A stretch of 64,000 bases of DNA from Longimicrobiales bacterium. Lineage in GTDB: Bacteria > Gemmatimonadota > Gemmatimonadetes > Longimicrobiales > Gaopeijiaceae. A program made the translations under genes and the position numbers. The notes under the pieces are model-generated. The model had not been told where the DNA came from and ran no database searches. It saw only the letters and a list, made by a program, of their open reading frames with translations. The stretch is from contig CBDDCX010000008.1 in assembly GCA_965226375.1 (NCBI GenBank), positions 2,206,798-2,270,797 on the forward strand, written 5' to 3'. Shown piece by piece: positions 2,402 through 59,269 of the stretch (the first letter of the stretch is position 1; each line of letters begins with the position of its first letter).

Positions 2402-2905
2402 GTTAGGCTGCGGGCCCCTCTCTTGACGGCAGCGACTTCTCCATAAGGCAGGAGAATTCGTCCGAGGCGGAGACGACGTAGCCTAAGCTCTCGTAGAGTC
2501 GCGTCGCCGGGTTACTCTTGAAGACGCGAAGCCGCACGAGGTCGTGGCCTTCGTTCACCGCGATGCTCTCAACGTGTTTCATTACGGCGGTGCCAAGGCC
2601 CGAGCCGCGTGATTCCTGAGTTAGCGGGATCGTCTTGAGATACAGAGCGTCATCCTCGGCACGGACGGCAAAGAACCCGACGCGCTGGCCTTCGCGATAG
2701 ACCATCTGATACGGCTGAGGAGGGGAGGGCTGCTGGAGATGACGCGCTTCGTCCCAACCGACGGTGCCGGACATCTCTTCGAAGAAGTTCGCCTTCTTGC
2801 GGTTCCGGACAAACGCGCCATCGTGCTCGGGATCGCAGGGCCTGAGCTCGAAGGTCGGTTGAGGCACGGGCGGCGCGGGTGGTTGATTGAAGGCAGCAGC
2901 CTAAC
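2402..2905 (-). mobile_element. Integron-type gene cassette carrying the GNAT gene
   Basis: On minus strand begins GTTAGGCTGC (2905-2896) and ends GCAGCCTAAC (2411-2402, overlapping the TAA stop): perfect 10-bp R'/R'' complementarity. Confidence 0.7.
2403..2867 (-). CDS. GNAT family N-acetyltransferase
   Basis: RGSGLGT acetyl-CoA motif and LRVFKSNPATRLYESLGY. Confidence 0.85.
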   Translation of the reverse strand: MPQPTFELRPCDPEHDGAFVRNRKKANFFEEMSGTVGWDEARHLQQPSPPQPYQMVYREGQRVGFFAVRAEDDALYLKTIPLTQESRGSGLGTAVMKHVESIAVNEGHDLVRLRVFKSNPATRLYESLGYVVSASDEFSCLMEKSLPSREGPAA

Positions 2906-2981
2906 ACAACTTGAAAGCACGCCCCCTGTGGGTACCGTGGAGTTGCGAAACGACCATGGACCACAGCAGAGGGCGGCTCTC

Positions 2982-4073
2982 ATGAAGCGGAACACCAAGT
3001 ATGTGGGACTCGACGTGCACCAGGCAATGACGGTGGCGACGGTTCGGAGCCAAGGGGGACGAGTGATCGCGCGCAGCGTGATCGAGACGGGGGACGCATC
3101 GATCACGGAGTTCTTCAGTGCGATGCGCGGGTCGGTGCATGTGGTGTTCGAGGAGAGAACCCAGGCGCAGTGGCTCTACGACCTACTGAGTCCTCGTGTG
3201 GATCGGGTGGTCGTGTGCGATCGCAGAGGCGAAAAGCGTTCGGGCAACAAGGGGGACCAGGTCGATGCCGACGAGCTGTCGGAGCGGTTGCGGTGTGGCG
3301 GGCTGCGCGCGGTATACCACGGCGCACACGGCCGATCTGATCTCAAGGAGCTGACTCGAGCCTATCGCAACCTCGTCGAAGACGGCACGCGCGTGATGCT
3401 GCGGCTCAAGGCACTCTTCCGTGCGCGGGCGATCCGAACCACGGGCGGCGGAGTCTACCAGCCGAAGCAGCGCGGCGCCTGGCTCGCGCAGCTACCGGAG
3501 GGAGGAGCTCGTCTACGAGCCGAGACCCTGTACGCTCAGCTCGATGTGCTTCGGGCTCAGCGCAAGAAGACCAAGGCGGCCATGGTCGCCGAGGCGAAGC
3601 GTGATCCGGCCTTCGGGGTGCTCGAGACGATCCCCTACTTTGGGCCCGTGCGTATCGCACTGTTGCTAGCAACCATGGGTACGCCGTGGCGCTTCCGCAC
3701 GAAGCGCAACCTGTGGGCCTATGCCGGACTCGCCGTGGTCACGCGCTCGAGCTCCGACTACGAGTTGTTCGATGGGCGTCCTCGCCGGCGGCGGCGCCCT
3801 CCGCTCACTCGAGGGTTGAACCGCAACCACAATCGAGTCCTCAAGAATGTCTTCAAGGGCGCCGCCAACGTAGCCATTGGACGTCCGGGCCCATTCCTGG
3901 ACTTCTATAACCGAATGCTCGAGCGCGGGATGCGCGAGGAGCTCGCCCGTGTGACGCTGGCTCGCAAGCTCGCAGCGCTCACCCTTCGTCTACTCAAAAC
4001 CGGAGAAGTCTTTGATCCGACGCAGCTGAGTCGACCCCAAACATTGAGGGGGGTTCATCGTCCTAGGGTGTAG
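2982..4073 (+). CDS. IS110 family DEDD recombinase/transposase
   Basis: YVGLDVH, VFEE, KGDQVDA (RuvC-like DEDD), LETIPYFGP, WAYAGL..RSSS. Confidence 0.93.
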   Translation: MKRNTKYVGLDVHQAMTVATVRSQGGRVIARSVIETGDASITEFFSAMRGSVHVVFEERTQAQWLYDLLSPRVDRVVVCDRRGEKRSGNKGDQVDADELSERLRCGGLRAVYHGAHGRSDLKELTRAYRNLVEDGTRVMLRLKALFRARAIRTTGGGVYQPKQRGAWLAQLPEGGARLRAETLYAQLDVLRAQRKKTKAAMVAEAKRDPAFGVLETIPYFGPVRIALLLATMGTPWRFRTKRNLWAYAGLAVVTRSSSDYELFDGRPRRRRRPPLTRGLNRNHNRVLKNVFKGAANVAIGRPGPFLDFYNRMLERGMREELARVTLARKLAALTLRLLKTGEVFDPTQLSRPQTLRGVHRPRV

Positions 4074-4477
4074 GGGTGCAGCGCATGACCTTCGATCCCT
4101 TGGAACGTCGAATCCCTGGACGACGGTGCGGGAGGCAGTCTCAAGCAAATCCGTACGCCCGGCTCGCAGTCATGCCGAGGCACGATCCTAACTCCAGGCC
4201 CTTCCGCAGAACCCGAAGAAGTGTCAGGCCGGCCCCGAGGCTGAGTCTCAGATAGAACCATGGTTCGCGTCGTACGACCTAGGTCCACTCAATCAAGTCC
4301 AGACGGATCGACCATCCAAGTGAGGATCATCGTGGCCGACACGAAGACTGACTCATCCAGCACACCGCTCCCTGACGATCCGGTCATTCCAGCCAAGCGG
4401 AGGCTGAGTGCCAAGCCCAACACGGCTTCGCAGACAGCCGGGGCGGAGCCCGGCCTTGACACTCTCTTTCATAGAAC
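4074..4477 (+). ncRNA. Putative bridge/seek RNA region of IS110 copy 1
   Basis: ~400-nt non-coding right end conserved in both copies; complementary segments (GCATGAC/GTCATGC, ATCCGT/ACGGAT, GCCGGG/CCCGGC); CCTAAC at 4187 and ATAGAAC at 4252; exact RNA limits unknown. Confidence 0.6.
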
Positions 4478-4811
4478 GCCTAGTTGCTAGGCCGCCGTCG
4501 TGCAGCACTTCAGCGGTTCCGTAGGCGAGCGAGATGACATCCAGTCCGTCAAACCCCTCGGTGTAGAATGCCAAGGCAGCGGCCCGCCCTAGGATCGGAT
4601 CTCCGCCAGGTGGGAGGAGGATCGCGTCGGGCGCGAAGAACCGAAGGTAGCCCTCAAGACTTTCCGCCGTGGGCCGACCAGGGCCGAACAACGCTTCAAT
4701 CGAATCGAGCTGTGCTTGTAAGATCTGGCGATCCGACGGGATGCCGGCCCTCGTGTCGGGACCGCAGGCGACAATGACAACTAGCAAAGCGAAGGGGCCG
4801 TGCCTGAGCAT
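4478..4811 (-). pseudogene. Truncated SnoaL/DUF4440-like lipoprotein
   Basis: FAPDAILLPPGGDPILGRAA motif; reading frame breaks at the IS110 end before the expected C-terminal strands. Confidence 0.65.
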
Positions 4812-5021
4812 AGAGATGCGTCTCCTGATTCTAACTATCACTGCAGCACCAGCTAACGGAAGGCATGTCCTAACGAGCTCACGGACTCACGACGCGAAGC
4901 GGCCGGCCCGTTGCTCACGTTAGAGCTTCGCGTCCCCGAGCGACAGCGAGCCTGAGGGCCGTGCGTGAGTCTGGCGTTATCGGGATGTGGTCCCGGTCGT
5001 TCAAGGCGGCACGCGTCAAAG

Positions 5022-23612: not shown

Positions 23613-24679
23613 AGGGGGTATTCCCTTAAGTCCACCGACCCCAAGATATAGTGGTTACCGGGGCTCTGCGGGCCGTTTCCCACGTCCGGTGCCGAGGTAA
23701 AGGGCCGAAGCTGGCGTGGGAGCACACTGAACAGCCTGCTCAAGCAAGCGGTAGAACAACAGGCCGCGAGCCCGGGATGTGCGTCGGTTGAAGCGAAAGG
23801 TGAACTCGTCCAGATAGTAGGGGAGGTGTTCGCGGGCGATCCCTCCTTGGAGGGTTCCGAGGACCCAGCGCTTGAGGAGAGACGCCACCCGATGTACGGC
23901 CGACATGAGCACGTGAGCGGGATCGCCGGAGGTCGAGAGGTTCGTGACCGTGTGGCGAAAGCCCAGTTTGGCGAGTCCCTGATAGCTTGGCCATCCGTCG
24001 GTATGCACCGTGCTTGCCGGTGCGATGCTATCCTTGACGAAGCCTCGCAGAACCGGAGCGGAGAGGTCGGGCACCCAACGCAGCCGTATTCTCCCGATCT
24101 TGCGTCCGTCGACCTCGGCGGCGATCGCGACGATGGCCTTCTTGATCGTCTCGCGGCCCCGCACTCCAGCCTCCACGCCCCCGACATAGCTCTCGTCCAC
24201 TTGCACAACGCCGCTCAGCTGGTCGCGATCCGGTCGGACCATGGCCCGGCGGAGCTTGTGGAGCCAGACCCACGCTGTCTTGTAGCTTCCCAGTCCGAGC
24301 ACGCGCTGGAGCCCGAGAGCATTGGCTCCGTATTTCTGGCTCGTGAGCTCCCAGGCAGCGAGAAACCACAGACGCAGGGGCGAGCGCGTGCGGTGGAACA
24401 CGGTTCCCGCCAGCACCGAGGTCTGCCTTCGACAGTGTGGGCAGACGAGACGCCCCCGCGATGCTCGCCAGACCTCTCCCAACCCGCCACAGCCCACGCA
24501 CACAAACCCTTCCGGCCAGCGCAGACCCTCCACGTACTCCAGGCATGCCGCATCGTCGGGGAAGAACTCGTCCAGCTCCAGCCGCGTACGGGGATAGTCC
24601 ACGCCGCCACGGAGCTGAGAAGCCGGAACCGCCATGACCACAACATGTAGTGGGCGGTGGACTTAAGGCAATACCCCCT
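23613..24679 (-). mobile_element. IS1595-family element A, copy 2 (transposase 23655-24641)
   Basis: Same IRs and protein as copy 1; TSD TTGTGTAA. Confidence 0.95.
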
Positions 24680-24822
24680 TTGTGTAAAAGGGGGTGAGGG
24701 GTCCGGGGAGGGTGGACAGCCCGGGAAAAAGAGAGGAAGCTCCTTGTGAATGTTCATCATGACACGAACCCGGGGAGTCCGGGCCTGCGCCAGCAGGTCC
24801 GGAACCGGAAAGGAGCTTCCTC

Positions 24823-26004
24823 ATGGAAAAGATGGTTGAAGTTGAGCGGGCCACGCAAGAAGAGTTACGGCAGGATTTGAAGTCGTTGTTTCAGGGCGCG
24901 ATTCGTGTTACGCTCGAGATGGTGCTGGAGGAGGAGTTGAAAGCGATGGTCGGAGCGCGTCGTTTCGAGCGGGTCGGCAGCCGGAAGGACCACAGGAACG
25001 GCACGTACCTCAGGCGCCTGCTCACGAGCTTGGGTCAGATCGACGTGATGGTGCCGCGCAGCCGGGAAGGCGGCTCGCCCGCCGACGTGATGGGCCGCTA
25101 CCGGCGCAGGAGTGAAGAAGTGGACGAGATGATGGTGGAGGCCTACGTGAGCGGTGTGTCGCAGCGCAAGATGGGCGACGTGACTGAAGCACTGCTGGGT
25201 GAGCGCGTGGGACGCTCGACGGTAAGCCGGGTCGCGAAGCGGCTCGATGGGGCTGTAGAAGCGCTGCGGAGCGCACCCATCGAGGGGCCTCACCCCTATC
25301 TGTATCTGGACGCGACGTTCCTCGATGCGCGCTGGGCCAGGAAGGTCGAGAACGTGAGCGCGCTCGTGGCCTACGCGGTGGATCCGGACGGTCACCGCCG
25401 GCTCCTGGCCATCACGCTAGGCCCTGAGGAGTCAGAGGACAGTTGGTCGGAGCTCCTCGAGCAGCTCCTGGAGCGAGGTCTCAGCGGCGTCGAACTGGTG
25501 ATCGCCGACAAGCACGCGGGCCTGGCAGCTGCGGTGCGCCGCTTCCTGCCTGAGGTGCGCCGTCAGCGCTGCACCGTGCACCTGCAACGCAACGTGCTGG
25601 CCAAGGTCCCGCATCGCCTGCGCAAGCGTGTGGCGCGCGAGGTTGCCGCCGTCTTCCGGGCCCCCGGGCTCGCTGAGGCGAAGAAGCGCCTGGCCGAGAT
25701 CACGACGCGCTGGCAAGAGGAGCTCCCCGAGGCAATGAAGGTGCTCGAGCGGGGCTTCACGGCCGCCACCCAGTTCTACGCGTTCCCCGAGCCCCACTGG
25801 GCCAGGCTACGCACCACGAACAGCCTCGAGCGCCTGCACACCGAGATCAAGCGTCGGATCCGGAGCGCCGGCGCCTTCCCCGACCGAGCCAGTGCGCTCC
25901 GCCTCATCACCGCGGTTGCTCTGAAGACTACTGCGGTCTGGAGCGAACGCCGCTACCTCGATCTCACGCTTCTCGAACCCAAGGAGGTCGCCAAGGCAGC
26001 CTAA
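24823..26004 (+). CDS. IS256 family (mutator-type) transposase
   Basis: RNG.YLRRL.T.LG, LYLDATF, LVIADKHAGL, QRCTVH, RTTNSLERL. Confidence 0.95.
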   Translation: MEKMVEVERATQEELRQDLKSLFQGAIRVTLEMVLEEELKAMVGARRFERVGSRKDHRNGTYLRRLLTSLGQIDVMVPRSREGGSPADVMGRYRRRSEEVDEMMVEAYVSGVSQRKMGDVTEALLGERVGRSTVSRVAKRLDGAVEALRSAPIEGPHPYLYLDATFLDARWARKVENVSALVAYAVDPDGHRRLLAITLGPEESEDSWSELLEQLLERGLSGVELVIADKHAGLAAAVRRFLPEVRRQRCTVHLQRNVLAKVPHRLRKRVAREVAAVFRAPGLAEAKKRLAEITTRWQEELPEAMKVLERGFTAATQFYAFPEPHWARLRTTNSLERLHTEIKRRIRSAGAFPDRASALRLITAVALKTTAVWSERRYLDLTLLEPKEVAKAA

Positions 26005-26057
26005 CCGAAGCATCGAGGAGCTTCCTCTCACTTTTACACACAACTCGGGACTTGACC

Positions 26058-27064
26058 TTTTTAAGTGCATCCAACCGAGAGAGACAGGGCCAAAGTAGAC
26101 GGCCCAGACGTCGTGGTCGATCTCTTCGAGGCCGATGTAATCTCCGCCGAGCAGGTGAGAGACGTTGATCCAGCGTGAGTGCCATCGGATTCCTCCGTTC
26201 GTTGAGACTTTGCGGACTTCGAAGTGAGCAGGGTAGTCGGGTGTGGTCAGCTTCGAGGGAAAGGACCGGGTCGAAGGTTGATAAGCAGAGACAGGTGGCT
26301 TTTGAGCGAGCGCTTCGTGGGGCCGGATCTCGTTGAAGTCGGTAAGGAAGGCGTTGAAGCGTTTCTGCTGGGCGGAGCGGTTTCCGGCCGGCGGGATGGT
26401 GGCTTCGGCCTTGAGGTCTTTATGCATGCGTTCGTGACGGCCATTCTGCTGGGGTGAAGCCGGCTCGATGAGGTCGGGCAGGATACCGAGCTTGATCCAC
26501 CAGACCGAGAGACGAGAGAGTCGGCCGAGGGCGATGGAAGCGAAGGGGGTGCCGTTGTCGGTGCGGATGCGAGCGGGGAGCCCGTACTTGCGGAAAAGGC
26601 GAGTAAAGACGCGACGGGAAGCAGAGTAGGTAGTGCCCTCGAGCCCCTGGCAGGCGAGTAGATAACGACTGAAGCCATCCTGGACGGTGAGTGGGTAGCA
26701 GTAGCGACCGTCGAGGGTCTTAAACTGACCCTTGAAGTCAGCCGACCAGATGGCGTTGGGTGCGTCGAAGGGAGCTGTGGGCCTGCCGGGATGCGGACGC
26801 CTACGACTCCTGCGCGGCTTCTTCACGAGTCCCTCACGGAGGAAGTATTTGTGGCTCAGTGGTGTGTGGATGCGCCCGGACACGATGCGGGCGATCTCCG
26901 AGGCCATCAGGTCCTTCGGATTCGTAGCGCTCGATCCACTTGTAGCCGGTCTTACGGCTGACGCCGTGGCGCAGGCAGAGCTCGGTGTGCGAGAATAGGC
27001 CACCCGTGGCCTCGAGAATGAATCGCTTACATTCGTTCATGGGATCGGTCTCCAACCATGGCAT
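26058..27064 (-). pseudogene. IS481 transposase with internal deletion/frameshift near 26840 and IS256 insertion
   Basis: MPWLETDPM..GVSRKTGYKW in one frame; WSADFKG, RTDNG, PQQNGRHERMH in another. Confidence 0.85.
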
Positions 27065-35133: not shown

Positions 35134-37033
35134 ATCGGGATAGGGGAGGACCGGCGATCCCGGTCCTTCCCCTCCCACACCACCAGGCATGCGGGTCCGC
35201 ACCTGGCGGTTCGGTGAGTTGAGGTCAGTACGGCGTGAGCCGGGGCACACCCAGCTCGTCGAAGTACGCCCCTGGCAAGGCCGTGTGCAGGGCGTGGTGC
35301 GCGGCCACGTGCCACCAGCTTCGCGCGAACCGAGCAGCTCGCCAGGCGAGGTTCTCGCTCACACCGCGAGCCCTCAACTCCCGGTACGCTGTCCTTCCCC
35401 GTTTCCACTGGCGTAATTGCAACGTACGCAGCCGGCGGTGGATCCATTGGTCCAGGTCTCGGAAAACCCCCGGTGTATCCGCTAAGCCGAAGTATGCCTT
35501 CCACCCCAGCACGTAGCGCCGTAGCTCTTCCGCCACCTGTTGCAGGCTCCGCCCGCCACTCCGGCTTGTAATCTGCCGGACTCGCTCCTTGAACTTCGTC
35601 AGGGCCTTCTTGCTGACCCGGCGCTTCACGACCTTCCCTGCCGCTACCCAGAAGCTGTAGCCCAGGAACTGTCGATCCCACACTCGCGCCACCGCGCTCT
35701 TTTCCTCGTTGACCTGAAGCCGAAGTTTCCCGTACAAGTGCCTCAGCGCCTGCATCACACGTTGTCCTGCCCGCCTCGACCGCACGTATACATTGCAGTC
35801 ATCGGCGTACCGGACAAACGCGTGTCCGCGTAGCTCCAACTCCTTGTCCACTTCGTCCAGGAGCACGTTCGCCAGCAACGGCGACAACGGTCCGCCCTGA
35901 GGCGTCCCCATGTGCCGCTCCATCACCACCCCGTTCGCCATGACTCCGGCTTCCAGGTAGCGACGGAGGATCCGCAGCATCGCCTTATCCTCGATCCGCT
36001 TTGCCAGCCGCCCCATCAGCACGTCGTGGTTCACCCGGTCGAAAAACTTCTCCAGGTCCACATCCACCACCCATCGTCTCCCTTCCTGGATGTATTGCTG
36101 CGCTTCGCGCACCGCATCGTGTGCTCGGCGCCCAGGCCGGAAGCCGTGGCTGTGCCGACTGAACGTCGGGTCGAACCTCGGTTGCAGCACCTGCAGGATG
36201 GCTTGTTGGATGAACCGGTCCAGCACGGTCGGAATCCCCAACTCCCGGACCCCTCCCCCACTCTTCGGTATCTCCTGCCTTCGTACCGGCTTCGGTTGGT
36301 AGGTCCCCGCCAGCAACCGCTGTCGGATCTCCCCCCAGTGCCTGCGCAAGTACTCTGGCAGCTCCTCCACGCTCATCCCGTCGATGCCCGGACTGCCCTT
36401 ATTCTGCCGCACGCGTTTCAACGCTCCTACGAGGTTGGCACGCCCGACCACCTCCTCCATCAGGAGATGCTCGCTTCCTGAGCGCTCGTCTCCATGGGCC
36501 ACCGTTCCGGCTTCGCCACTCCCCTCTACCTTCGGGGCTTCACCCCTATCCTCCAGCGGGAGCTCCAGTTGCCTGGACTCCTGGCGCATGGCCTTCTCGA
36601 GATCCACGGTCGTCACACTCTCCTCTCCGTTCGGCCCTTCGTCCGACAAAGCTGGGTCCAAGCGCATCATGCACTTCGTCGGCCTACTATGGCCTCTGCT
36701 GACTTCTCGCTCCGCCGGCAGGCCCAACAGCGCAATGCCGGCGTCGCCCTTTCAGGCGTCAGGCGAGACCTCCCCGGGTAAGAACGATGACCTTCCCCGC
36801 ACAATCGCCGGATCTACGCCGCTTCCCCTTGGTCGCAGGAGCTTCGCGGTCAGTGGTCCGCTCGCCCCGGTCCGCAGCACCTCGTATCCGGTTCCTGTTC
36901 GTCGACTCACGGGTTCGTTTCACGCTTCGTTCAGCGTACGCCTCACGACGAACGCCTTGCGCTTCCCTTCGGTCCCTGCGACCAGGTTCCGGGAGGACTT
37001 TCACCTCCAAGTCATCGCCCATGCCGGGCCCAC
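35134..37033 (-). mobile_element. Group II intron, class IIC (1900 nt)
   Basis: 5' GTGGGCCCGGCATGGG..GGTGAAAGTCC; domain V AACCGCCAGGTGCGGACCCGCATGCCTGGTGGT (CGC triad); 3' end CTATCCCGAT; inserted just after a terminator hairpin. Confidence 0.92.
35225..36589 (-). CDS. ltrA: Group II intron reverse transcriptase/maturase, no endonuclease domain (start uncertain)
   Basis: NKGSPGIDG, RELGIPTVLDR, GTPQGGPLSPLLAN, RYADD. Confidence 0.93.
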   Translation of the reverse strand: MRQESRQLELPLEDRGEAPKVEGSGEAGTVAHGDERSGSEHLLMEEVVGRANLVGALKRVRQNKGSPGIDGMSVEELPEYLRRHWGEIRQRLLAGTYQPKPVRRQEIPKSGGGVRELGIPTVLDRFIQQAILQVLQPRFDPTFSRHSHGFRPGRRAHDAVREAQQYIQEGRRWVVDVDLEKFFDRVNHDVLMGRLAKRIEDKAMLRILRRYLEAGVMANGVVMERHMGTPQGGPLSPLLANVLLDEVDKELELRGHAFVRYADDCNVYVRSRRAGQRVMQALRHLYGKLRLQVNEEKSAVARVWDRQFLGYSFWVAAGKVVKRRVSKKALTKFKERVRQITSRSGGRSLQQVAEELRRYVLGWKAYFGLADTPGVFRDLDQWIHRRLRTLQLRQWKRGRTAYRELRARGVSENLAWRAARFARSWWHVAAHHALHTALPGAYFDELGVPRLTPY

Positions 37034-45287: not shown

Positions 45288-46854
45288 CGGAACCTGTCAA
45301 CGACAATGGGACACTCTACGGGATTAATTAGAGAGCAATGTCCTGTGTGGTGAGGGAAGGGATGGGAGGATTGATGAAGACGGCCTCCGGGAGCGGTTTG
45401 GGATTCGGCACACCTCTGACGAAGCGTTCGGGATGAGCGGCCCATGCTTCGCGGAGCACGGATTTCCTGCCGGCAATGACCTGATCGGCGTTCCCGAAGT
45501 GGACCTGCTCGGGGGTTAGCATCGAGATGCCGCCATGGCGGTGCTCGGCATTGTACCAGCGGAAGAACGATCGACAGAACGTCTTGGCTTGGCCCTGATC
45601 CCCGAACCGTCCGGGAAACGAGGGATGGTACTTCAAGGTTTTGAACTGAGCCTCGGAAAACGGGTTGTCATCCGACACCTGAGGCCGGCTCAACGAGCGG
45701 GTCACGCCGAGGTCAGCGAGAAGTTGAGCGGTGCATTGGCTCGTCATTGGAGCTCCCCGATCCGAGTGCAGGGTCAGGACCCGGGGCTGGACGCCATGCT
45801 TCAGGCAGCTCTGCTGGATCAACCGGCCGGCCAGGGCCGAGTTCTCCCGGTCCGCCACCATCCAGCCCACGACGTAGCGGCTGTAGATGTCCATGATGAC
45901 GTAGAGGTAGTAATAGCTCCACTTCTTCGGCCCGAGCAGCCGCGTGATATCCCAGGACCACACCTGGTTCGGCGCCGTGGCCATCAACTCGGGCTTCTTG
46001 TACTCGGGATGGGTGCGCTGCGCCCGGCGTTCCTGAACCGGCACCTCGGAGGCCAGAACACGATACATCGTGCGTTCGCTGCACAGGTAGACCTCTTCGT
46101 CGAGCAGCGTGGCCACCACCTCGGCGGGTGAGCGGTCCACGAACCGCTCCGAACACAGCGTGTCGAAGACCTCGCCTCGTTCCGTCTCGCTCAATGCCCG
46201 GGCGGGCGTCGGGCGGGGCTGCTGTTGCCCGGTTGATGGGCCTCGACGACGGTACAACGTCGATCGGGAGACCTCGAGGGCCGCGCACGCCGGTTTTACA
46301 CCGACGTGCTTAGCCAGCTCATCGGCCGCCTTCAAGAGTTTGTCCCGTCGTCGAGGCTTATCCCCAGCAGCCCCGCAACTTTTCCCTGCACGTCGATGAT
46401 CAGGTGTGCCTTCCTGAGCTCATTCCCGAGCCGTGCGTTTCGCCGCTCCAGCTTGCGTACCTTCTCATCCAGCGGATTTCGCTCCGGCTTGCGGCCGCGT
46501 TTCTTCGACAGGGCCTTCAGCGACCCGCTATGCGCCGCCTTGCGCCACGTCGTCAGGTGCGACGAGTACAGGCCCTCTCGCCGCAGGACTTGACCCACCT
46601 CGCCGGGCTCGGTGCACCGGTCCGCTTCTTCGACGATCCGCAGCTTGTACGACGGACTGAACCGCCGCCGTAGCGGCCTATCTACTACCTCCGGGTCCGC
46701 AGGAGCTGCCGCGCTTCGCTTGGCCTCCCCGGTTCCAGGGGCACTACCATTCTCTGCCATTCTCTCTCGCAGTCCCAACATGTTCGTTTTCTCTGCCTTC
46801 GCCCTACTCTAATTCTTTGCGTGCTCCGTGTCTCACGTACGTTGGCAGAGAGGG
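45288..46854 (-). mobile_element. IS3-family element, copy B, intact (orfA 46781-46332, orfB 46335-45328)
   Basis: WSWDIT, LHSDRG, DNPFSEAQFKTLKY DDE motifs; orfA/orfB TTGA overlap. Confidence 0.93.
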
Positions 46855-49507
46855 CTGCGAGATCGACGAGTGCGACGTCGCTGTCGATGAAACGGTTGAT
46901 GCCACCACTTAGGTAGGCAACAGTGAAGAGGACACCCAGACCGTTGGGGAGAGCGTGAGGTAATAGGTGAGCCCTTTCACCTTTAGCGGTATCAACGATC
47001 GTTACCTGTTCAATGGGACCCCCATCCGCTCGCAACCGGACGAGCCCGTCGAGGCTCACCGCGTAGATGTAGCCGTCCGGCCCCCAGCTGAGACTCCCGG
47101 TTGTAGAAAGGAGCCGGATGTCCCCATCTGACTCAGCCACGGTGATAGGACTACCCCCGGCCAGCGAAAGCACCTTTACCGCCGGGGCCGTGAAGGAGAG
47201 TCTCTCTCCGTCCGGGGAGTACGTCTGGTTTCGAGCTCCCTGCGTACCAGGCAGAACCGTGGCCTCAAGCTGGTCGAGGCGTTTCATCCAAAGGGGGTAT
47301 TCCCTTAAGTCCACCGACCCCAAGATATAGTGGTTACCGGGGCTCTGCGGGCCGTTTCCCACGTCCGGTGCCGAGGTAAAGGGCCGAAGCTGGCGTGGGA
47401 GCACACTGAACAGCCTGCTCAAGCAAGCGGTAGAACAACAGGCCGCGAGCCCGGGATGTGCGTCGGTTGAAGCGAAAGGTGAACTCGTCCAGATAGTAGG
47501 GGAGGTGTTCGCGGGCGATCCCTCCTTGGAGGGTTCCGAGGACCCAGCGCTTGAGGAGAGACGCCACCCGATGTACGGCCGACATGAGCACGTGAGCGGG
47601 ATCGCCGGAGGTCGAGAGGTTCGTGACCGTGTGGCGAAAGCCCAGTTTGGCGAGTCCCTGATAGCTTGGCCATCCGTCGGTATGCACCGTGCTTGCCGGT
47701 GCGATGCTATCCTTGACGAAGCCTCGCAGAACCGGAGCGGAGAGGTCGGGCACCCAACGCAGCCGTATTCTCCCGATCTTGCGTCCGTCGACCTCGGCGG
47801 CGATCGCGACGATGGCCTTCTTGATCGTCTCGCGGCCCCGCACTCCAGCCTCCACGCCCCCGACATAGCTCTCGTCCACTTGCACAACGCCGCTCAGCTG
47901 GTCGCGATCCGGTCGGACCATGGCCCGGCGGAGCTTGTGGAGCCAGACCCACGCTGTCTTGTAGCTTCCCAGTCCGAGCACGCGCTGGAGCCCGAGAGCA
48001 TTGGCTCCGTATTTCTGGCTCGTGAGCTCCCAGGCAGCGAGAAACCACAGACGCAGGGGCGAGCGCGTGCGGTGGAACACGGTTCCCGCCAGCACCGAGG
48101 TCTGCCTTCGACAGTGTGGGCAGACGAGACGCCCCCGCGATGCTCGCCAGACCTCTCCCAACCCGCCACAGCCCACGCACACAAACCCTTCCGGCCAGCG
48201 CAGACCCTCCACGTACTCCAGGCATGCCGCATCGTCGGGGAAGAACTCGTCCAACTCCAGCCGCGTACGGGGATAGTCCACGCCGCCACGGAGCTGAGAA
48301 GCCGGAACCGCCATGACCACAACATGTAGTGGGCGGTGGACTTAAGGCAATACCCCATTCATCCAAAGCTGGATGCGCGAGCCAGTTCCCGCGGAGGCAG
48401 CGGCGAAAACGAAACTGGAGCCATCGGGAGCGATCGCGATGTGCGAACCGAACTGATCGGACAAGCTCCGTCCCGCAGGTAACGAGATGCTGTAGCGGCT
48501 AACAGTCTTCGTTGTGGGCCGAAGCCAACCCCACGCGGCAGCAACCAGCGCGAAGATTGCCACAACACCGACCACAGTGAACGGCACGGAGACCGGTCGA
48601 GCGGTAGACTTCTGAGCGGTATCTGAGCCAGATCCCACATAAGGAGGGGCAGGTCGGGTTGTATGCTCGAAGTGGTCGTCTGCGAGCGCCTCCGAAAACT
48701 GAGCGGTCGTCCCAAAACGGTCCGCCGGAAGCTTCTCCAGAGCCCGAGAAAGCGCCGCTCTATGTTGTGGGGCACGGTCCCGCGCACTGTCGTGATCGGG
48801 GGCGCGTCAGAGGTGAGGATTTTGACCAGCACCGCTTGGGCAGTGGATGCCAAGAACGGCGGGTCCCCTGAGAGCATCTCGTAGAGCACACAGCCGAGCG
48901 CATACACGTCGGACTGTGGGTCCACATCCCGGTCGCCCGTCGCCTGTTCGGGGCTCATGTAGTGTGGCGTGCCGAGGCTGAGTCCCGTCTCCGTGATGCG
49001 CCCCGCACCCGCCTGAGCCACGGCCAGGGCGATCCCGAAGTCGGCGACGAGTGGCTCACCCTGCTCGCTCAAAAGGATGTTACCGGGTTTGATGTCGCGA
49101 TGGACCACGCCGTGCCCGTGCGCGTAGTCGAGTGCGCCTGCGACCTTCTGCGTGATCGCCAGTGCGTCGTCCACACCGAGTTGCTTCTCACGGTCGATGC
49201 GTTCCCTGAGTGATTCCCCTTGCACGTAGGGCATCACATAGAACAGGAACGAGTCCGCCTCGCCAGAATCGTGGAGGGGCAGAATATGCGGATGAGTCAG
49301 GTTGGCGGTGACCTCGATCTCAGCGAGGAAGCGTTCGGCCCCGACTACAGCCGCCAGTTCCGGCTTCAAGACCTTGAGAGCCACCTCGCGATTGTGCTTC
49401 AGGTCCTTGGCCAAGTAGACCGTAGCCATCCCGCCCTCGCCCAACTCTCGCTCGATGGTGTAGCGGCCCCCAAGAGCAGCATTGAGTCGTTCGAGAGCAT
49501 CGGACAT
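46855..49507 (-). pseudogene. Third kinase-propeller paralog: frameshift near 48750, IS1595 insertion, truncated by IS3
   Basis: Full kinase motifs 49507-48780; continues ..LW|MKRLDQLEATVLPGT across the IS; ends VDLA at IS3. Confidence 0.85.
47292..48358 (-). mobile_element. IS1595-family element A, copy 3 (transposase 47334-48320)
   Basis: Same IRs and protein; TSD TCATCCAA. Confidence 0.95.
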
Positions 49508-53091: not shown

Positions 53092-53199
53092 GCCCTACCT
53101 CGCCCCCTTCCTCGCACTCTAACACAACTTGAAAGCACGCCCCCTGTGGGTACCGTGGAGTTGCGAAACGACCATGGACCACAGCAGAGGGCGGCTCTC

Positions 53200-54291
53200 A
53201 TGAAGCGGAACACCAAGTATGTGGGACTCGACGTGCACCAGGCAATGACGGTGGCGACGGTTCGGGGCCAAGGGGGACGAGTGATCGCGCGCAGCGTGAT
53301 CGAGACGGGGGACGCATCGATCACGGAGTTCTTCAGCGCGATGCGCGGGTCGGTGCACGTAGTGTTCGAAGAGGGAACCCAGGCGCAGTGGCTCTACGAC
53401 CTACTGAGTCCTCGTGTGGATCGGGTGATCGTATGCGATCGCAGAGGCGAAAAGCGTTCGGGCAACAAGGGGGACCAGGTCGATGCCGACGAGCTGTCGG
53501 AGCGGTTGCGGTGTGGCGGGCTGCGCGCGGTATACCACGGCGCACACGGCCGATCTGATCTCAAGGAGCTGACTCGAGCCTATCGCAACCTCGTCGAAGA
53601 CGGCACGCGCGTGATGCTGCGGCTCAAGGCACTCTTCCGTGCGCGGGCGATCCGAACCACGGGCGGCGGAGTCTACCAGCCGAAGCAGCGCGGCGCCTGG
53701 CTCGCGCAGCTACCGGAGGGAGGAGCTCGTCTACGAGCCGAGACCCTGTACGCTCAGCTCGATGTGCTTCGGGCTCAGCGCAAGAAGACCAAGGCGGCCA
53801 TGGTCGCCGAGGCGAAGCGTGATCCGGCCTTCGGGGTGCTCGAGACGATCCCCTACTTTGGGCCCGTGCGTATCGCACTGTTGCTAGCAACCATGGGTAC
53901 GCCGTGGCGCTTCCGCACGAAGCGCAACCTGTGGGCCTATGCCGGACTCGCCGTGGTCACGCGCTCGAGCTCCGACTACGAGTTGTTCGATGGGCGTCCT
54001 CGCCGGCGGCGGCGCCCTCCGCTCACTCGAGGGTTGAACCGCAACCACAATCGAGTCCTCAAGAATGTCTTCAAGGGCGCCGCCAACGTAGCCATTGGAC
54101 GTCCGGGCCCATTCCTGGACTTCTATAACCGAATGCTCGAGCGCGGGATGCGCGAGGAGCTCGCCCGTGTGACGCTGGCTCGCAAGCTCGCAGCGCTCAC
54201 CCTTCGTCTACTCAAAACCGGAGAAGTCTTTGATCCGACGCAGCTGAGTCGACCCCAAACATTGAGGGGGGTTCATCGTCCTAGGGTGTAG
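53200..54291 (+). CDS. IS110 family DEDD recombinase/transposase
   Basis: YVGLDVH, VFEEGT, KGDQVDA, WAYAGL..RSSS. Confidence 0.93.
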   Translation: MKRNTKYVGLDVHQAMTVATVRGQGGRVIARSVIETGDASITEFFSAMRGSVHVVFEEGTQAQWLYDLLSPRVDRVIVCDRRGEKRSGNKGDQVDADELSERLRCGGLRAVYHGAHGRSDLKELTRAYRNLVEDGTRVMLRLKALFRARAIRTTGGGVYQPKQRGAWLAQLPEGGARLRAETLYAQLDVLRAQRKKTKAAMVAEAKRDPAFGVLETIPYFGPVRIALLLATMGTPWRFRTKRNLWAYAGLAVVTRSSSDYELFDGRPRRRRRPPLTRGLNRNHNRVLKNVFKGAANVAIGRPGPFLDFYNRMLERGMREELARVTLARKLAALTLRLLKTGEVFDPTQLSRPQTLRGVHRPRV

Positions 54292-54695
54292 GGGTGCAGC
54301 GCATGACCTTCGATCCCTTGGAACGTCGAATCCCTGGACGACGGTGCGGGAGGCAGTCTCAAGCAAATCCGTACGCCCGGCTCGCAGTCATGCCGAGGCA
54401 CGATCCTAACTCCAGGCCCTTCCGCAGAACCCGAAGAAGTGTCAGGCCGGCCCCGAGGCTGAGTCTCAGATAGAACCATGGTTCGCGTCGTACGACCTAG
54501 GTCCACTCAATCAAGTCCAGACGGATCGACCATCCAAGTGAGGATCATCGTGGCCGACACGAAGACTGACTCATCCAGCACACCACTCCCTGACGATCCG
54601 GTCATTCCAGCCAAGCGGAGGCTGAGTGCCAAGCCCAACACGGCTTCGCAGACAGCCGGGGCGGAGCCCGGCCTTGACACTCTCTTTCATAGAAC
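54292..54695 (+). ncRNA. Putative bridge/seek RNA region of IS110 copy 2
   Basis: One visible substitution versus copy 1; CCTAAC at 54405, ATAGAAC at 54470; TTGACA close to the right end. Confidence 0.6.
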
Positions 54696-54786
54696 CAATT
54701 TGCGATCCTGCTGCGCCTCAATCTGGCCAACGCCATCGAAGTACGCGAGCTAGATGTCTACCGCGACTGCAGCAATCGCTTGTTAG
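54696..54786 (-). other. attC site core, separated from its R' (53117-53123) and native R'' (58454-58460) by two insertions
   Basis: Rebuilt: GCCTAAC-AAGCG-ATTGCTGC...GCAGCAGGATCGC-AAATTG-GTTAGAG, ~100 bp imperfect palindrome. Confidence 0.82.
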
Positions 54787-54817
54787 GGCAATAATATAGT
54801 TGGCTAACCCATAAATT

Positions 54818-56516
54818 TTATTCGTCGTTGCCTGATGGCTCCTCGGGTGCCTCCTCAAGTCCGTCCATGAATTCCGTCTGCAAGTGCTCGGGCGATAGAG
54901 GAAGGTCGCTGACTCGGGTAACGGGAACGCCCACCTGTTTCCCGAGTTTCTCGATGTCCTTGTCGTCGGAATAGATTTCCGACGCGCCAGAGACCTTAGC
55001 GATCGCAACGATCTGGCGATCGAACTTGAGCTTCGCCCACGTCTGCGCACCGGCCTTCGGTGGTTTGTTGCCGAGTTCGCCCCTCAGCATGACCGCCACT
55101 TCGATGGCGGCGCGTTGGTCGAAGGACTCAATAATGAAGACCGCCTGGCGGTTTAGCGTCTCGACGATCCCCGTCGCTTCTTTTGGCGCCAATGGGGTAT
55201 TGCCTTAAGTCCACCGCCCACTACATGTTGTGGTCATGGCGGTTCCGGCTTCTCAGCTCCGTGGCGGCGTGGACTATCCCCGTACGCGGCTGGAGCTGGA
55301 CGAGTTCTTCCCCGACGATGCGGCATGCCTGGAGTACGTGGAGGGTCTGCGCTGGCCGGAAGGGTTTGTGTGCGTGGGCTGTGGCGGGTTGGGAGAGGTC
55401 TGGCGAGCATCGCGGGGGCGTCTCGTCTGCCCACACTGTCGAAGGCAGACCTCGGTGCTGGCGGGAACCGTGTTCCACCGCACGCGCTCGCCCCTGCGTC
55501 GAAGGCAGACCTCGGTGCTGGCGGGAACCGTGTTCCACCGCACGCGCTCGCCCCTGCGTCTGTGGTTTCTCGCTGCCTGGGAGCTCACGAGCCAGAAATA
55601 CGGAGCCAATGCTCTCGGGCTCCAGCGCGTGCTCGGACTGGGAAGCTACAAGACAGCGTGGGTCTGGCTCCACAAGCTCCGCCGGGCCATGGTCCGACCG
55701 GATCGCGACCAGCTGAGCGGCGTTGTGCAAGTGGACGAGAGCTATGTCGGGGGCGTGGAGGCTGGAGTGCGGGGCCGCGAGACGATCAAGAAGGCCATCG
55801 TCGCGATCGCCGCCGAGGTCGACGGACGCAAGATCGGGAGAATACGGCTGCGTTGGGTGCCCGACCTCTCCGCTCCGGTTCTGCGAGGCTTCGTCAAGGA
55901 TAGCATCGCACCGGCAAGCACGGTGCATACCGACGGATGGCCAAGCTATCAGGGACTCGCCAAACTGGGCTTTCGCCACACGGTCACGAACCTCTCGACC
56001 TCCGGCGATCCCGCTCACGTGCTCATGTCGGCCGTACATCGGGTGGCGTCTCTCCTCAAGCGCTGGGTCCTCGGAACCCTCCAAGGAGGGATCGCCCGCG
56101 AACACCTCCCCTACTATCTGGACGAGTTCACCTTTCGCTTCAACCGACGCACATCCCGGGCTCGCGGCCTGTTGTTCTACCGCTTGCTTGAGCAGGCTGT
56201 TCAGTGTGCTCCCACGCCAGCTTCGGCCCTTTACCTCGGCACCGGACGTGGGAAACGGCCCGCAGAGCCCCGGTAACCACTATATCTTGGGGTCGGTGGA
56301 CTTAAGGGAATACCCCCTTGGCGCCATTCTTACCAGCGCCTCACTGAGGGAGGGCGTGGGAATGACGATTTTCGTGCCAGACCGATCCAGTTCGGATATG
56401 AGGTATTCTACGCGCTTCCGAGGTTCCACAACTGGCTTGCCGGAGGGGTCCCGCGGCGGCCCAGGGGCTCCGGGTTGGAGGAGTAGGATAAGCATGGAAG
56501 CGTCAATCACTACCAC
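54818..56516 (-). pseudogene. PIN-domain (VapC-like) nuclease interrupted by IS1595 A copy 4
   Basis: Joined across the TSD: MVVIDASMLI..IPTPSLSEAL..KFDRQIVAIAKV.GASEIYSDDKDI. Confidence 0.85.
55192..56318 (+). mobile_element. IS1595-family element A, copy 4, with in-frame 60-bp duplication (transposase 55230-56276)
   Basis: TSD TGGCGCCA; 55441-55500 repeated at 55501-55560. Confidence 0.95.
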
Positions 56517-57255
56517 TGGCTAACCGCCCTCGCCTGATTTCCCCTAGTTCCTCATAGGCCCCATCGTCCCATTCTCCCGCAATCGCGCGAAGCTCCGTCA
56601 GGGCACTCCCTAGCGTCGTAGGCTCAAGCCTTCCAAAGCTATCGATGCGGAAATGCTTGAGGAGCCACCGCCCTTCACCATCCCGTATCCAATATCCCTG
56701 ACCACCGAGGCGCACTGGCTCGAACAGATGGTGAGCCAAGCTCTTCGCAAGGTGCCTATTGGTGTGGCAACCAGCGATTGGTTCACCTTCGTACTCCATG
56801 AGCACCGGGATACTGTCCCCTGTGCCTCCCACGCGAACGACTACGCCGGAGATACTTCCGGCCTGGTTCACAGCGGAGAAGACCTCCTCCGCTTCCTCCC
56901 TACCCGGAAAATCCAGAACCTTGGCGCCTCTCTTTCCCTTTCTCAGAACCGCCCGCGCGTTGTCCTCTCGAAGGAATTTGTTCACCATCCGATAGGCGGT
57001 CTGCGCATCGCGCGGCGCTCCTCCGAGGCGAACGGCCTCCGTCCGTGCATGAACCTTAGGAATCGCCTCGTGCTCGATCTTCTGTACAAGGGTCGTGCTT
57101 CCTTCCTCGATCTGCACCAGGTGGACGGACTTCGGCTCTCCGAGGATCGCCGCTAGTCCCGCCAGATACTCAGCGAGGCGTGCCATAGGCATCGTCTCGG
57201 GCGTGAACGCCTCGATCTTGAAGAGATACTCGCCGGGTATCGGCCCGTTAGTCAC
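56503..57255 (-). CDS. Uncharacterised 250-aa protein, partner of the PIN nuclease
   Basis: Clean ORF overlapping the PIN start; beta-rich C-terminal half (possible OB-like fold, inference). Confidence 0.8.
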   Translation of the reverse strand: MTNGPIPGEYLFKIEAFTPETMPMARLAEYLAGLAAILGEPKSVHLVQIEEGSTTLVQKIEHEAIPKVHARTEAVRLGGAPRDAQTAYRMVNKFLREDNARAVLRKGKRGAKVLDFPGREEAEEVFSAVNQAGSISGVVVRVGGTGDSIPVLMEYEGEPIAGCHTNRHLAKSLAHHLFEPVRLGGQGYWIRDGEGRWLLKHFRIDSFGRLEPTTLGSALTELRAIAGEWDDGAYEELGEIRRGRLASGSD

Positions 57256-57404
57256 GTCGTCCCCGGCCCTTTGCTGTTGGCATTCTCCCCTACTTTTTGC
57301 TTCAACGCCTTCTTCATGCGTTCCAACCCCGCGCTTGGATCTCGGATCCGCTCGGGACTACGGTCCGCGTCTGAGGTGGGGGTGGGCTTCTTTGTTTCGC
57401 TCAT
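57252..57404 (-). CDS. 50-aa charged ORF coupling transposase and cargo (not in the ORF track)
   Basis: MSETKKPTPTSDADRSPERIRDPSAGLERMKKALKQKVGENANSKGPGTT; ATGA and GTGA overlaps with both neighbours. Confidence 0.6.
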   Translation of the reverse strand: MSETKKPTPTSDADRSPERIRDPSAGLERMKKALKQKVGENANSKGPGTT

Positions 57405-58375
57405 GAAACGCACAACTCCTGTCCGGTCAACTCGGAGTACCTGATTCGCCTGTCGATGATCCCCTTGAGGGCTGTAAGGAACCGACCGGAATCGGTATCC
57501 TCACGCATGTTGAACCTGAATGCCTGCTCATCAAGATAGCGGGTGACGTGGAACGGCTCTATGGACACGTACGTCCCGCCGATCGTCCGCTTGAGCAGGG
57601 ACCAGAAGTTCTCGATTCCGTTCGTATGGACGCGGCCCCTAACGTACTCGTGAACGTGGTCGATGACCTCGTGCATGTACTCGGATTTGAGCCCGTAGTA
57701 GCCCCAATGCCGGTCGGTGAACAGCCTCGCCCCTTCCTCGACGTTGTCCCGGACGTGGCCCTGCATGGTCCGCTTGGTCACGTCCGAGAGGACGCGGGTA
57801 CGGACAAGAGAGTGCGGGGCGTTATGGGGCCGCTCAAGGAGTCCCATGACGGCGGTTTTGTCGTGTCCTCCGGTCCCATGGATGACTCGCTTCCGCTTGG
57901 CGATGTGCATGTTCTTGGCCTTCCCGCCGATGTAGGTCTCATCGACCTCCACCTCGCCGTCCATCTTCTCGAAAGAGCCCATGCGCAGGGCCTCGCGGAT
58001 GCGCTGAAGCATGAACCAAGCAGTCTTCTGGGTTACGCCAATATGACGGCTCAGCTCATAACTGGAAATACCGTTCTTACAGTTCACGAGTAGCCAGACA
58101 GCGGGGAGCCATTGGGAAAGTTTGATCGGGCTGTCCTCGAAGATCGTTCCGACCTTGATGGAGAACTGCCTACGGCACGCCTTCTCGCGACACCTCCACC
58201 GCCTCTGGTTCTTGAACCAATAATGCCGACCCACTGTACCGCATTTCGGGCAAACCTGTTCGCCATCCGGCCAACGGGCATCCGCGAGGAACTGGATCGC
58301 GTCTTCCTCGTCGGCAAAGAACCGGGCCGCTTGCAGGAACGTCGCTGGAGCCTTCATTTCACTTTCGTTCGCCAT
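57401..58375 (-). CDS. IS1595 family transposase (distinct from element A)
   Basis: CPKCG..CREKAC, VEVDETYIGG, LFTD, HTNGIENFWSLLKR, YLDEQAFRFN. Confidence 0.95.
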   Translation of the reverse strand: MANESEMKAPATFLQAARFFADEEDAIQFLADARWPDGEQVCPKCGTVGRHYWFKNQRRWRCREKACRRQFSIKVGTIFEDSPIKLSQWLPAVWLLVNCKNGISSYELSRHIGVTQKTAWFMLQRIREALRMGSFEKMDGEVEVDETYIGGKAKNMHIAKRKRVIHGTGGHDKTAVMGLLERPHNAPHSLVRTRVLSDVTKRTMQGHVRDNVEEGARLFTDRHWGYYGLKSEYMHEVIDHVHEYVRGRVHTNGIENFWSLLKRTIGGTYVSIEPFHVTRYLDEQAFRFNMREDTDSGRFLTALKGIIDRRIRYSELTGQELCVS

Positions 58376-58453: not shown

Positions 58454-59203
58454 GTTAGGCTGAATCCTGCCCCGACCCTGTACTATCTCAATTGGGCGTC
58501 GAATAGCGCGAGCATTCTGTTCCAGGATTCTTCGGCGAAGCTCTCGTTGAAGACTTCGGGACGGGTGTCGTTGAAGAAGGCGTGGTCGGCGCCGTTGTAG
58601 ATGTGGATTTCGATTTCTTTCCCGACGGCTTTCAGGTCGGCTTCGAGTTTGTGGGCAACGGCGGGAGTGACAAACCCATCGTTTTCGGCGAAGAAGCCAA
58701 GCACCGGCGCGTGCAGGTTGGCCAAGTCAGGGTGCACTTCCGAGTGAATGCCGTAGTAGTTGACGCACGCGCCGACTTTGTTGTTCGCGCAGGCCGCGTA
58801 GAGCGACAACTGGCCGCCCATGCAAAAACCGACTGTGCCGACTTGGTCGCCGGTCGTAGCATCGAGTCCGAGTAGGTAGTCGACGGCGCCGCGCATGTCC
58901 AGTTCTGTGCGATCGATGTTGAGCGCCATCATGAGCTTACCCGCATCGTCGGGGCTGGTGGTCGATTCGCCATGGTAGAGGTCCGGCGCAAGCGCAACGA
59001 ACCCCACTTTGGCAAGCCTGTCGCACACATCTTTGATGTGGTCGACAAGACCCCACCACTCCTGCAAGACGATGACGCCGGGGCCACGGCCGGAATCGGG
59101 GATAGCGAGGTAGCCTTTGCACCTGCCGCCGTTGCTGGGGAACTCAACCATTTGACCTGCCATTAGCTCGCTGCAGCCTGACACCGTGAGGATTCAGTCT
59201 AAC
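58454..59203 (-). mobile_element. Integron-type gene cassette carrying the dienelactone hydrolase gene
   Basis: Starts GTTAGACTGAATCCT, ends AGGATTCAGCCTAAC (14/15 complementary); attC sequence on both sides. Confidence 0.8.
58483..59163 (-). CDS. Dienelactone hydrolase family protein
   Basis: LQEWWGL, ALAPDLY, GFCMGG, AdHAFFND. Confidence 0.92.
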   Translation of the reverse strand: MAGQMVEFPSNGGRCKGYLAIPDSGRGPGVIVLQEWWGLVDHIKDVCDRLAKVGFVALAPDLYHGESTTSPDDAGKLMMALNIDRTELDMRGAVDYLLGLDATTGDQVGTVGFCMGGQLSLYAACANNKVGACVNYYGIHSEVHPDLANLHAPVLGFFAENDGFVTPAVAHKLEADLKAVGKEIEIHIYNGADHAFFNDTRPEVFNESFAEESWNRMLALFDAQLR

Positions 59204-59269
59204 GCATTGCGATTCTGTTGCGCGGCTAAGATGGTGACCGCCGGCGAAGCGCGCGAGCCTAATGTCTAC
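59197..59269 (-). repeat. attC-family site, right two-thirds with R' GTTAGAC
   Basis: GTAGACATTAGGCTCGCGCGCTTCG...GCGCAACAGAATCGCAATGCGTTAGAC, homologous to 54696-54786. Confidence 0.78.

Follow-up and report, generated by a model that had tools for sequence, protein, structure and literature searches.

An IS110-family element with predicted guides for integron crossover sites and a candidate leader frame across its joined ends

The element, its two copies and its relatives

The window, i.e., the whole stretch of 64,000 nucleotides of Longimicrobiales DNA that was analyzed, contains two copies of an IS110-family element. Their features and the remnants of the sites that they interrupt are as follows.

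2899..2905, plus strand: left target, the bottom strand of an R' crossover heptamer; core AC at 2904-2905
2906..2981, plus strand: left end of 76 nt, with a 6-bp sub-terminal repeat at 2912-2917 and a long hairpin pairing the recombinase Shine-Dalgarno sequence; open in the recombinase frame
2982..4073, plus strand: IS110-family DEDD recombinase of 363 amino acid residues (D11, E57, D92, D95; S257)
4121..4270, plus strand: two-loop bridge RNA, target loop followed by donor loop (11 of 24 pairs compensatory)
4322..4477, plus strand: leader, with GAGG at 4322-4325, GTG at 4332, and an open frame of 48 codons and 2 nt up to the right terminus
4456..4477, plus strand: right terminus, with TTGACA at 4456-4461, the sub-terminal repeat at 4466-4471 and core AC at 4476-4477
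4478..4530, minus strand: remainder of the interrupted attC-like site, with a degenerate R''
53117..53123, plus strand: left target of copy 2
53124..54695, plus strand: copy 2, with left end at 53124-53199, recombinase at 53200-54291 (G59 intact), RNA at ~54339-54488 and leader at 54550-54695
54696..54788, minus strand: remainder of the interrupted attC, with R'' at 54782-54788

If the core is assigned to the right end, the element proper spans 2906-4477, and the second copy spans 53124-54695. The first-pass annotation had reported two copies, the first at 2901-4477. Both copies were present, but positions 2901-2905 are the target sequence CTAAC and the element starts at 2906. The two copies differed at 9 of 1577 nt. 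Eight of these differences were clustered at 3048-3215, among them G59R, and at several positions of this cluster two other sequencing runs showed the base of copy 2 only. The cluster reflects either recombination with a relative or an assembly error. The residue that G59R gives the recombinase of copy 1 was absent from all 82 aligned relatives. The genome of the organism contained eight left ends and six right ends of the element. It also contained a bridge RNA copy without recombinase at G000:C8:1779375-1781190 (RNA at C8:1779375-1779540), whose right guide was one base shorter; this copy is a relic interrupted by other repeats.

Similar to the IS1111 group, the element possesses a long downstream region, its non-coding right end being 404 nt versus 76 nt for its left end. 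Its sub-terminal inverted repeats were 6 bp long, below the IS1111 range of 7–17 bp (usually 11–13 bp), and those of some relatives were 7 bp. These repeats covaried between the two ends (TTTCA/TGAAA and TCTCA/TGAGA types). Site and orientation were fixed, the shared core was short and no target was duplicated beyond the core, as is characteristic of IS110 elements. The core had been described as AAC. It is instead AC: the insertions of sister elements follow GAC, and the core of more distant elements is AG. In the relatives L106 and L138, the last 17 nt of the right end were tandemly repeated, with two and seven copies, respectively, possibly from repeated abortive excision or re-insertion.

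Both PF01548 and PF02371 matched the recombinase above their cut-offs. D11, E57, D92 and D95 were kept in 81–82 of 82 aligned rows. Position 257, the presumed catalytic serine, was serine in 68 and threonine in 14 of the 82 aligned relatives, and the threonine may reflect an alignment shift. The structural model had a pLDDT of 95, and its best fold match was IS621 (Foldseek E 4e-14, TM 0.67, 21% identity). The NF033542 score was 118, below the cut-off of 140, and thus the recombinase is a divergent member of the IS110 family.

The relatives compared were from 78 genome loci, taken from the best 80 of 113 matches, and from 80 metagenome loci, the best 80 among at least 500 matches. They were 46–93% identical and, where named, were mostly from Gemmatimonadota, with some from Acidobacteriota and other groups. 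Of 301 genomes of the phylum, 17 contained a match at E 1e-20. The term clade is used for relatives with 52% identity or more and the term sister clade for those with 46–49%, a division made by identity, not by target. The Acidobacteriota sister elements L069-L084 aimed at a different conserved site, which was twice near Xer-like recombinase genes.

Other mobile DNA was also found in the window. A group II intron with a reverse transcriptase was located at 35225-36952 on the minus strand, its 5' end near 37030, where it follows a terminator-like hairpin rather than attC. In addition, other insertion sequences (IS1595, Mutator and rve-type) were densely clustered at 23655-27003, 45328-48320 and 55230-58375.

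Guides of the bridge RNA and insertion sites

The predicted two-loop RNA takes up ~150 nt of the 404-nt right end and consists of two stems with internal loops, of which 11 of 24 consensus pairs were compensatory among 35 sequences. No Rfam family matched at the element, and the z-scores of single-sequence folding were unremarkable (0.33 and -1.44). Four candidate guides were placed in it.

4145..4154, plus strand: right target guide, complement of the core and the right target; handshake bases at 4155-4156
4184..4192, plus strand: left target guide, with CCTAAC at 4187-4192
4216..4224, plus strand: right donor guide, complement of the core and the first left-end bases (7 of 9 matching by eye)
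4252..4258, plus strand: left donor guide, identical to the right terminus of the element

The first-pass annotation had pointed out CCTAAC at 4187-4192, ATAGAAC at 4252-4258, a terminal hairpin and TTGACA at 4456-4461, all of which were confirmed in the sequence, and its left target and left donor guides were rightly placed. The right-hand guides, which it lacked, were found 5' of the left ones, at 4145-4154 and 4216-4224. The guide order from 5' to 3' is hence right target, left target, right donor and left donor. In seekRNAs the top-strand guide likewise comes first (PMC11187229). The chances of the CCTAAC and ATAGAAC matches in a shuffled right end were 0.11 and 0.015, respectively. The earlier caution that such short matches might be accidental was justified for each match by itself, but conservation and covariation raise both above chance.

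In permutation tests, which relatedness among the elements inflates, of the 8 positions compared between the right target guide and the right flank, 5.68 matched versus 2.70 when permuted (63 clusters at 97%; none of the 5000 permutations exceeded 3.46), and 5.32 versus 2.63 matched at 90% clustering (n = 24). The left target guide matched at 4.51 of 5 positions versus 3.69 when permuted (n = 59), which is the covariation of CCTAAC at 4187-4192 with its targets that had been proposed as a check. L165, L106 and L138 were dropped from these tests because their right flanks were element sequence, and 4 of 144 anchors were moved by one base on the basis of the core only. The right donor guide matched at 1.90 of 2 positions versus 1.63 at 97% clustering and was indistinct from shuffles at 90%. 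The left donor guide was invariant among the clade and ended in AG in the relatives with an AG core, where by eye it changed with the element end. Covariation of the donor guides is limited because the element ends barely vary. Moreover, the mean number of handshake pairs was 0.64 before exchange and 2.43 after exchange (53 elements), a bias that has been described for IS621 (PMC13626964).

The fit of the element's own right guide to six sites of its own genome, compared in register, was loose, with 2, 6, 4, 6, 2 and 3 of 8 matches. One contig from an RNA run contained another insertion, whose flank, as read from a loose contig end, fitted 8 of 8 positions, and two other runs showed mostly a different guide variant. 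The placement and covariation of the guides bear out the earlier proposal of an IS110-family recombinase with a 3' RNA carrying target and donor guides for the IntI crossover box. The bridge RNA is very probably aimed at integron crossover sites. By analogy with the IS110 family, the RNA would be produced and bound by the recombinase.

On the minus strand the empty sites read GTTAGGC and GTTAGAG, as first reported, and minus-strand genes begin just beyond them. For instance, beyond the left target of copy 1, a minus-strand GNAT gene has its start at 2867. Starts led by a Shine-Dalgarno sequence were found in 30 of 103 left flanks versus 10% at random; a looser start test that omitted the Shine-Dalgarno sequence was weak (54 of 73 versus 56% at random). 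Given that both window copies directly precede minus-strand gene starts and that Shine-Dalgarno-led starts are enriched in left flanks, the orientation points to insertion at the R' box, antisense to the cassettes. The core AC flanks the bond cut by IntI.

Insertion after CTAAC, as originally described, held for five of the eight left ends in the genome, whereas the other three lacked CTAAC; all eight followed AAC. Among the distinct left flanks of relatives of at least 52% identity, 112 of 126 ended in CTAAC and 124 of 126 in AAC. Targeting is relaxed. In a crude arm-pairing test, 14 of 73 sites scored at least 10 versus none of 73 on the upstream side, and the strict partner heptamer was present downstream of 30 of 81 sites versus 6 upstream. 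Many sites are therefore partial or look-alikes. The two window sites scored just 4 and 3 in the arm-pairing test, yet both fold with paired R boxes; R'' of site 1 is degenerate. The possibility that insertion leaves attC intact found no support, as the R boxes no longer pair when the occupied site is folded (-16.4 versus -18.1). Unoccupied target-like sites were located at 59197-59230 and 4829-4925 of the window, of which 4868-4925 folds as an attC-like hairpin. An integron integrase above the TIGR02249 cut-off was identified on another contig of the genome. A scan of the genome for CTAAC/GTTAG found few candidate attC-like sites and no large array, and a genome-wide attC heuristic returned noise only.

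An IntI 3' end was 108–219 nt from the right end in 6 of 19 loci of one guide class versus none of 54 others, the class having been defined after the data were seen and including the mislabelled L136. Three of these six integrases passed the TIGR02249 cut-off. In L120, L137, L030, L037, L145 and L156, the 3' end of an integron integrase faced the attI-like site, in cassette orientation. Most members of this guide class fell in a nested group with 98% support in a quick, midpoint-rooted tree of 59 rows that left out the window's own protein. The preferred target of the lineage is the IntI crossover box of attC; the members of one nested subclade are inserted at attI-like sites. A 42%-identical relative with an AG core (L167:370-390) was inserted three bases after a CTAAC heptamer, with a matching left guide, and is perhaps another independent move onto integron sites.

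Reading frame and hairpin at the joined ends

The last 146 nt of the right end form a reading frame that begins with GTG at 4332, is preceded by GAGG and contains no stop to the right terminus. The final 135 nt were open in the junction frame in all 65 clade clusters, and 61 of the 65 possessed a Shine-Dalgarno sequence with an in-frame start. The left ends were 73, 76, 79 or 82 nt long (3n+1) and were open in the recombinase frame in 79 of 79 distinct variants. Thus, joining of the ends fuses the leader in frame to the recombinase. The fused leader, left end and recombinase would comprise 437 amino acid residues, 74 more than the 363-residue form. The first-pass annotation had suggested that the long RNA may hold extra domains; its 3' 146 nt appear instead to act as a frame led by a start codon, in register with the recombinase across the joined ends.

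The distance from start to end was a multiple of three in 60 of 63 cases, the spacer before the start being spread 11/32/20 over the three classes. With 589 substitutions in the leader, about 19 stops were expected and none was seen, in a comparison of up to 32 disjoint pairs that skipped pairs below 65% identity. The other leader frames are unsuitable as controls because conserved motifs impose stops in them. Single indels in the leader were multiples of three in merely 7 of 29 cases in pairwise alignments, and net length is what stays; mutually cancelling frameshifts may therefore occur. The exceptions were L132 and L162, which lacked a start, and L010, L067, L062 and L157, which were out of frame. 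The dN/dS ratios were 0.88 for the leader (22 pairs), 0.80 for the left end and 0.17 for the recombinase. The leader peptide evolves almost neutrally.

A junction frame in a different register was also present in the sister clade. Of 10 callable loci, 8, which are near-copies of each other, had a frame of 56 codons with its stop 8 nt inside the recombinase gene, and in the remaining two the frame ended within the hairpin. Five relatives of 36–44% identity shared the RNA and a buried ribosome-binding site, and two of them had the in-frame fusion.

The left end folded to pair the recombinase Shine-Dalgarno sequence in 95 of 95 distinct ends. For the specified hairpin, 85% of cells were paired and 14 of 24 pairs were compensatory, and neither any of 500 shuffles nor any slid control was as high. 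RNAalifold returned no consensus hairpin for the left end. The start site of the leader was more open than that of the recombinase in 48 of 56 cases. Promoter-like hexamers were noted by eye at 2911-2916 and 2933-2938, with a 16-nt spacer, and a promoter scan of the left end found nothing. A transcript from ~+39, past these hexamers, would partly free the Shine-Dalgarno sequence (0.54 versus 0.84 paired). An upstream start inside the left end was also considered and rejected, since some variants are without any.

Joined ends were found in one metagenome contig (L165) and in one database protein (P0165) that equals the fused product; both may be tandem dimers or circles. The junction was absent from the contigs of 4 of the 23 runs listed (RNA depth 2–6), and neither viral contigs nor 401 genomes contained the junction pattern. 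A search for longer, leader-bearing proteins found none, and the single-sequence fold of P0165 was uninformative (pLDDT 38). The literature searched, largely open-access papers, described neither a reading frame across the junction of IS110 elements nor a bridge RNA aimed at attI.

Taken together, these features suggest a mechanism in which targeting and expression would be linked. In the target loop, the left guide would read the near-constant crossover heptamer and the right guide the host-specific spacer and L-box bases, while the donor loop would read the joined ends. Exchange at the AC core would then insert the element into the IntI crossover in antisense orientation relative to the cassettes. 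In the integrated element, the hairpin would hide the ribosome-binding site on any transcript that includes the left terminus, so that read-through is silenced and basal recombinase comes from an internal start. On a circle or a tandem dimer, the leader frame, beginning 146 nt inside the right end, would cross the junction. Ribosomes on the leader would melt the hairpin and either continue in frame into the recombinase, as in the clade, or stop on its start codon, as in the sister clade. Recombinase would hence be made mostly from transcripts that already hold the bridge RNA just upstream, and insertion at the IntI crossover site would follow. Since transcription from a junction promoter would begin within the left end, past the leader start, the model needs a transcript from further upstream or round the circle. 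A junction promoter alone cannot supply a transcript that crosses the junction, and the source of this transcript is one that we infer.

Other explanations account for part of these observations. The fusion may matter as a protein: circles would make a longer recombinase whose 74 extra residues, mostly basic and of low complexity, alter its activity, e.g., by favouring insertion or the binding of folded attC. In accordance with such a role, the in-frame fusion was maintained across 53–99% identity, 47 of the 50 clusters with less than 79% identity had a leader net charge of +4 to +15, the first leader codons had a dN/dS of 0.57, and P0165 shows that the fused product can be encoded. However, dN/dS over the whole leader was close to one, the charge was not kept in the element's own subclade (-3 to +2 in 10 of 11), and the sister clade has a junction frame without fusion. 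A protein role is thus considered unlikely. It is also rather improbable that the right-end frame acts in the integrated state, by shielding the 3' end of the RNA against Rho or degradation or through read-through of the terminal hairpins, with the left-end frame as a by-product of hairpin and repeat constraints. Hairpins were indeed predicted inside the leader (mean z -2.0; 29 of 65 below -2), 44% of shuffled left ends stayed open and one other left-end frame was open in 59 of 79 variants. Against this possibility, no conserved stop was found past the right end (2 to >100 codons), all gaps in the left-end alignment of the clade were whole codons, at several places, and the register with the recombinase start was held in two clades by two different means.

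It is very improbable that the element is an ordinary IS1111-type element whose sole switch is a junction promoter and whose open frames arose by chance in GC-rich DNA, as none of the expected stops was seen in the leader and nearly all clusters possessed the Shine-Dalgarno-led in-frame start. Junction promoters are the known switch (PMC12288879), a correctly spaced TTGACA was present in 42 of 74 clusters, and 28% of shuffled leaders stayed open. The -35 hexamer, however, departed from TTGACA in 32 of the 74 clusters, and the -10 position of the window's element is weak.

The whole explanation, i.e., RNA-guided targeting of the crossover together with translation of the recombinase gated by circularization, is preferred and seems reasonably probable to us. 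The guides are shown by covariation, and the target preference and the conservation of the frame and the hairpin are shown as well, while expression, translation and timing are deduced. Within it, the leader probably serves as a translation switch. A stricter version stands at about even chances: the split frame, once joined on the circle, would drive the recombinase only from transcripts carrying the bridge RNA, with the 437-residue form made by circles only. In the same version the lineage would be an independent integron parasite whose left guide is constant on the IntI heptamer and whose right guide is swapped between attC families and attI.

Comparison with known elements and significance

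Among the matches listed, the closest named elements were ISSso6 and ISAzs32, which are distant (26% and 23.5% identity, respectively). Similar to the element of this study, the ISSso6/ISAzs32/ISEc45 branch of IS110 has a 3' non-coding region and the same N-terminal motif. To our knowledge, no integron targeting is known for this branch. The best plasmid matches among those listed had ~30% identity or less over most of the recombinase, and none of the matches listed (40 of 94 and 60 of 1281) belonged to the ISKpn4/ISPst6/ISPa21 clade.

RNA-guided targeting of attC is already known from ISKpn4 and ISPst6, in another lineage and reportedly at the other attC end. As described in PMC11187229 and PMC3001079, the IS1111-attC group (ISKpn4, ISPst6, ISPa21 and ISPa25) also has an IS110/IS1111-type recombinase, a guide RNA downstream of the gene, the top-strand guide 5' of the bottom-strand guide and antisense insertion in attC. 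By their description (PMC3001079), those elements insert near the 5' end of attC, different from this lineage, whose insertions are at the R' box on the 3' side and, for one subclade, at attI-like sites. Their proteins start with a DLAK motif (PMC11187229), whereas the recombinase of this study starts with GLDVH. Their sub-terminal repeats are 11–13 bp and those of this element 6 bp. Because the known IS1111-attC elements are near the attC 5' end, the lineage at the R' box looks like a second, independent integron-site lineage at the other attC end, set apart by its described site and its N-terminal motif.

IS621 and ISCro4, as described in PMC11208160 and PMC13626964, share with this element the fold, four guides in two loops, a 2-nt core and the handshake bias. 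Relative to those accounts, the RNA here is in the right end, the guide order is reversed and the core is AC. The switch known for IS621 and ISCro4 from the same texts is the junction promoter, to which a junction-spanning reading frame would be added here. The nearest precedent for translational control is ISPpu9, an IS110 element in which 5' structure silences the transposase mRNA and activation is post-transcriptional, no junction promoter being needed (PMC12288879). That activation is by an antisense RNA, whereas a leader assembled at the junction is proposed for this element.

The silencing of integrated bridge recombinases and their activation on the circle have so far been explained by junction promoters and handshake pairing. 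A junction-assembled leader would be a separate layer of control and, if true, part of an end annotated as non-coding is coding. The annotated gene and the whole right end, cloned alone, would then miss the native control. In addition, the dozens of natural right-guide variants form a ready reprogramming series. For integron biology, the element adds to the RNA-guided lineages at IntI sites a second one, which is apparently independent.
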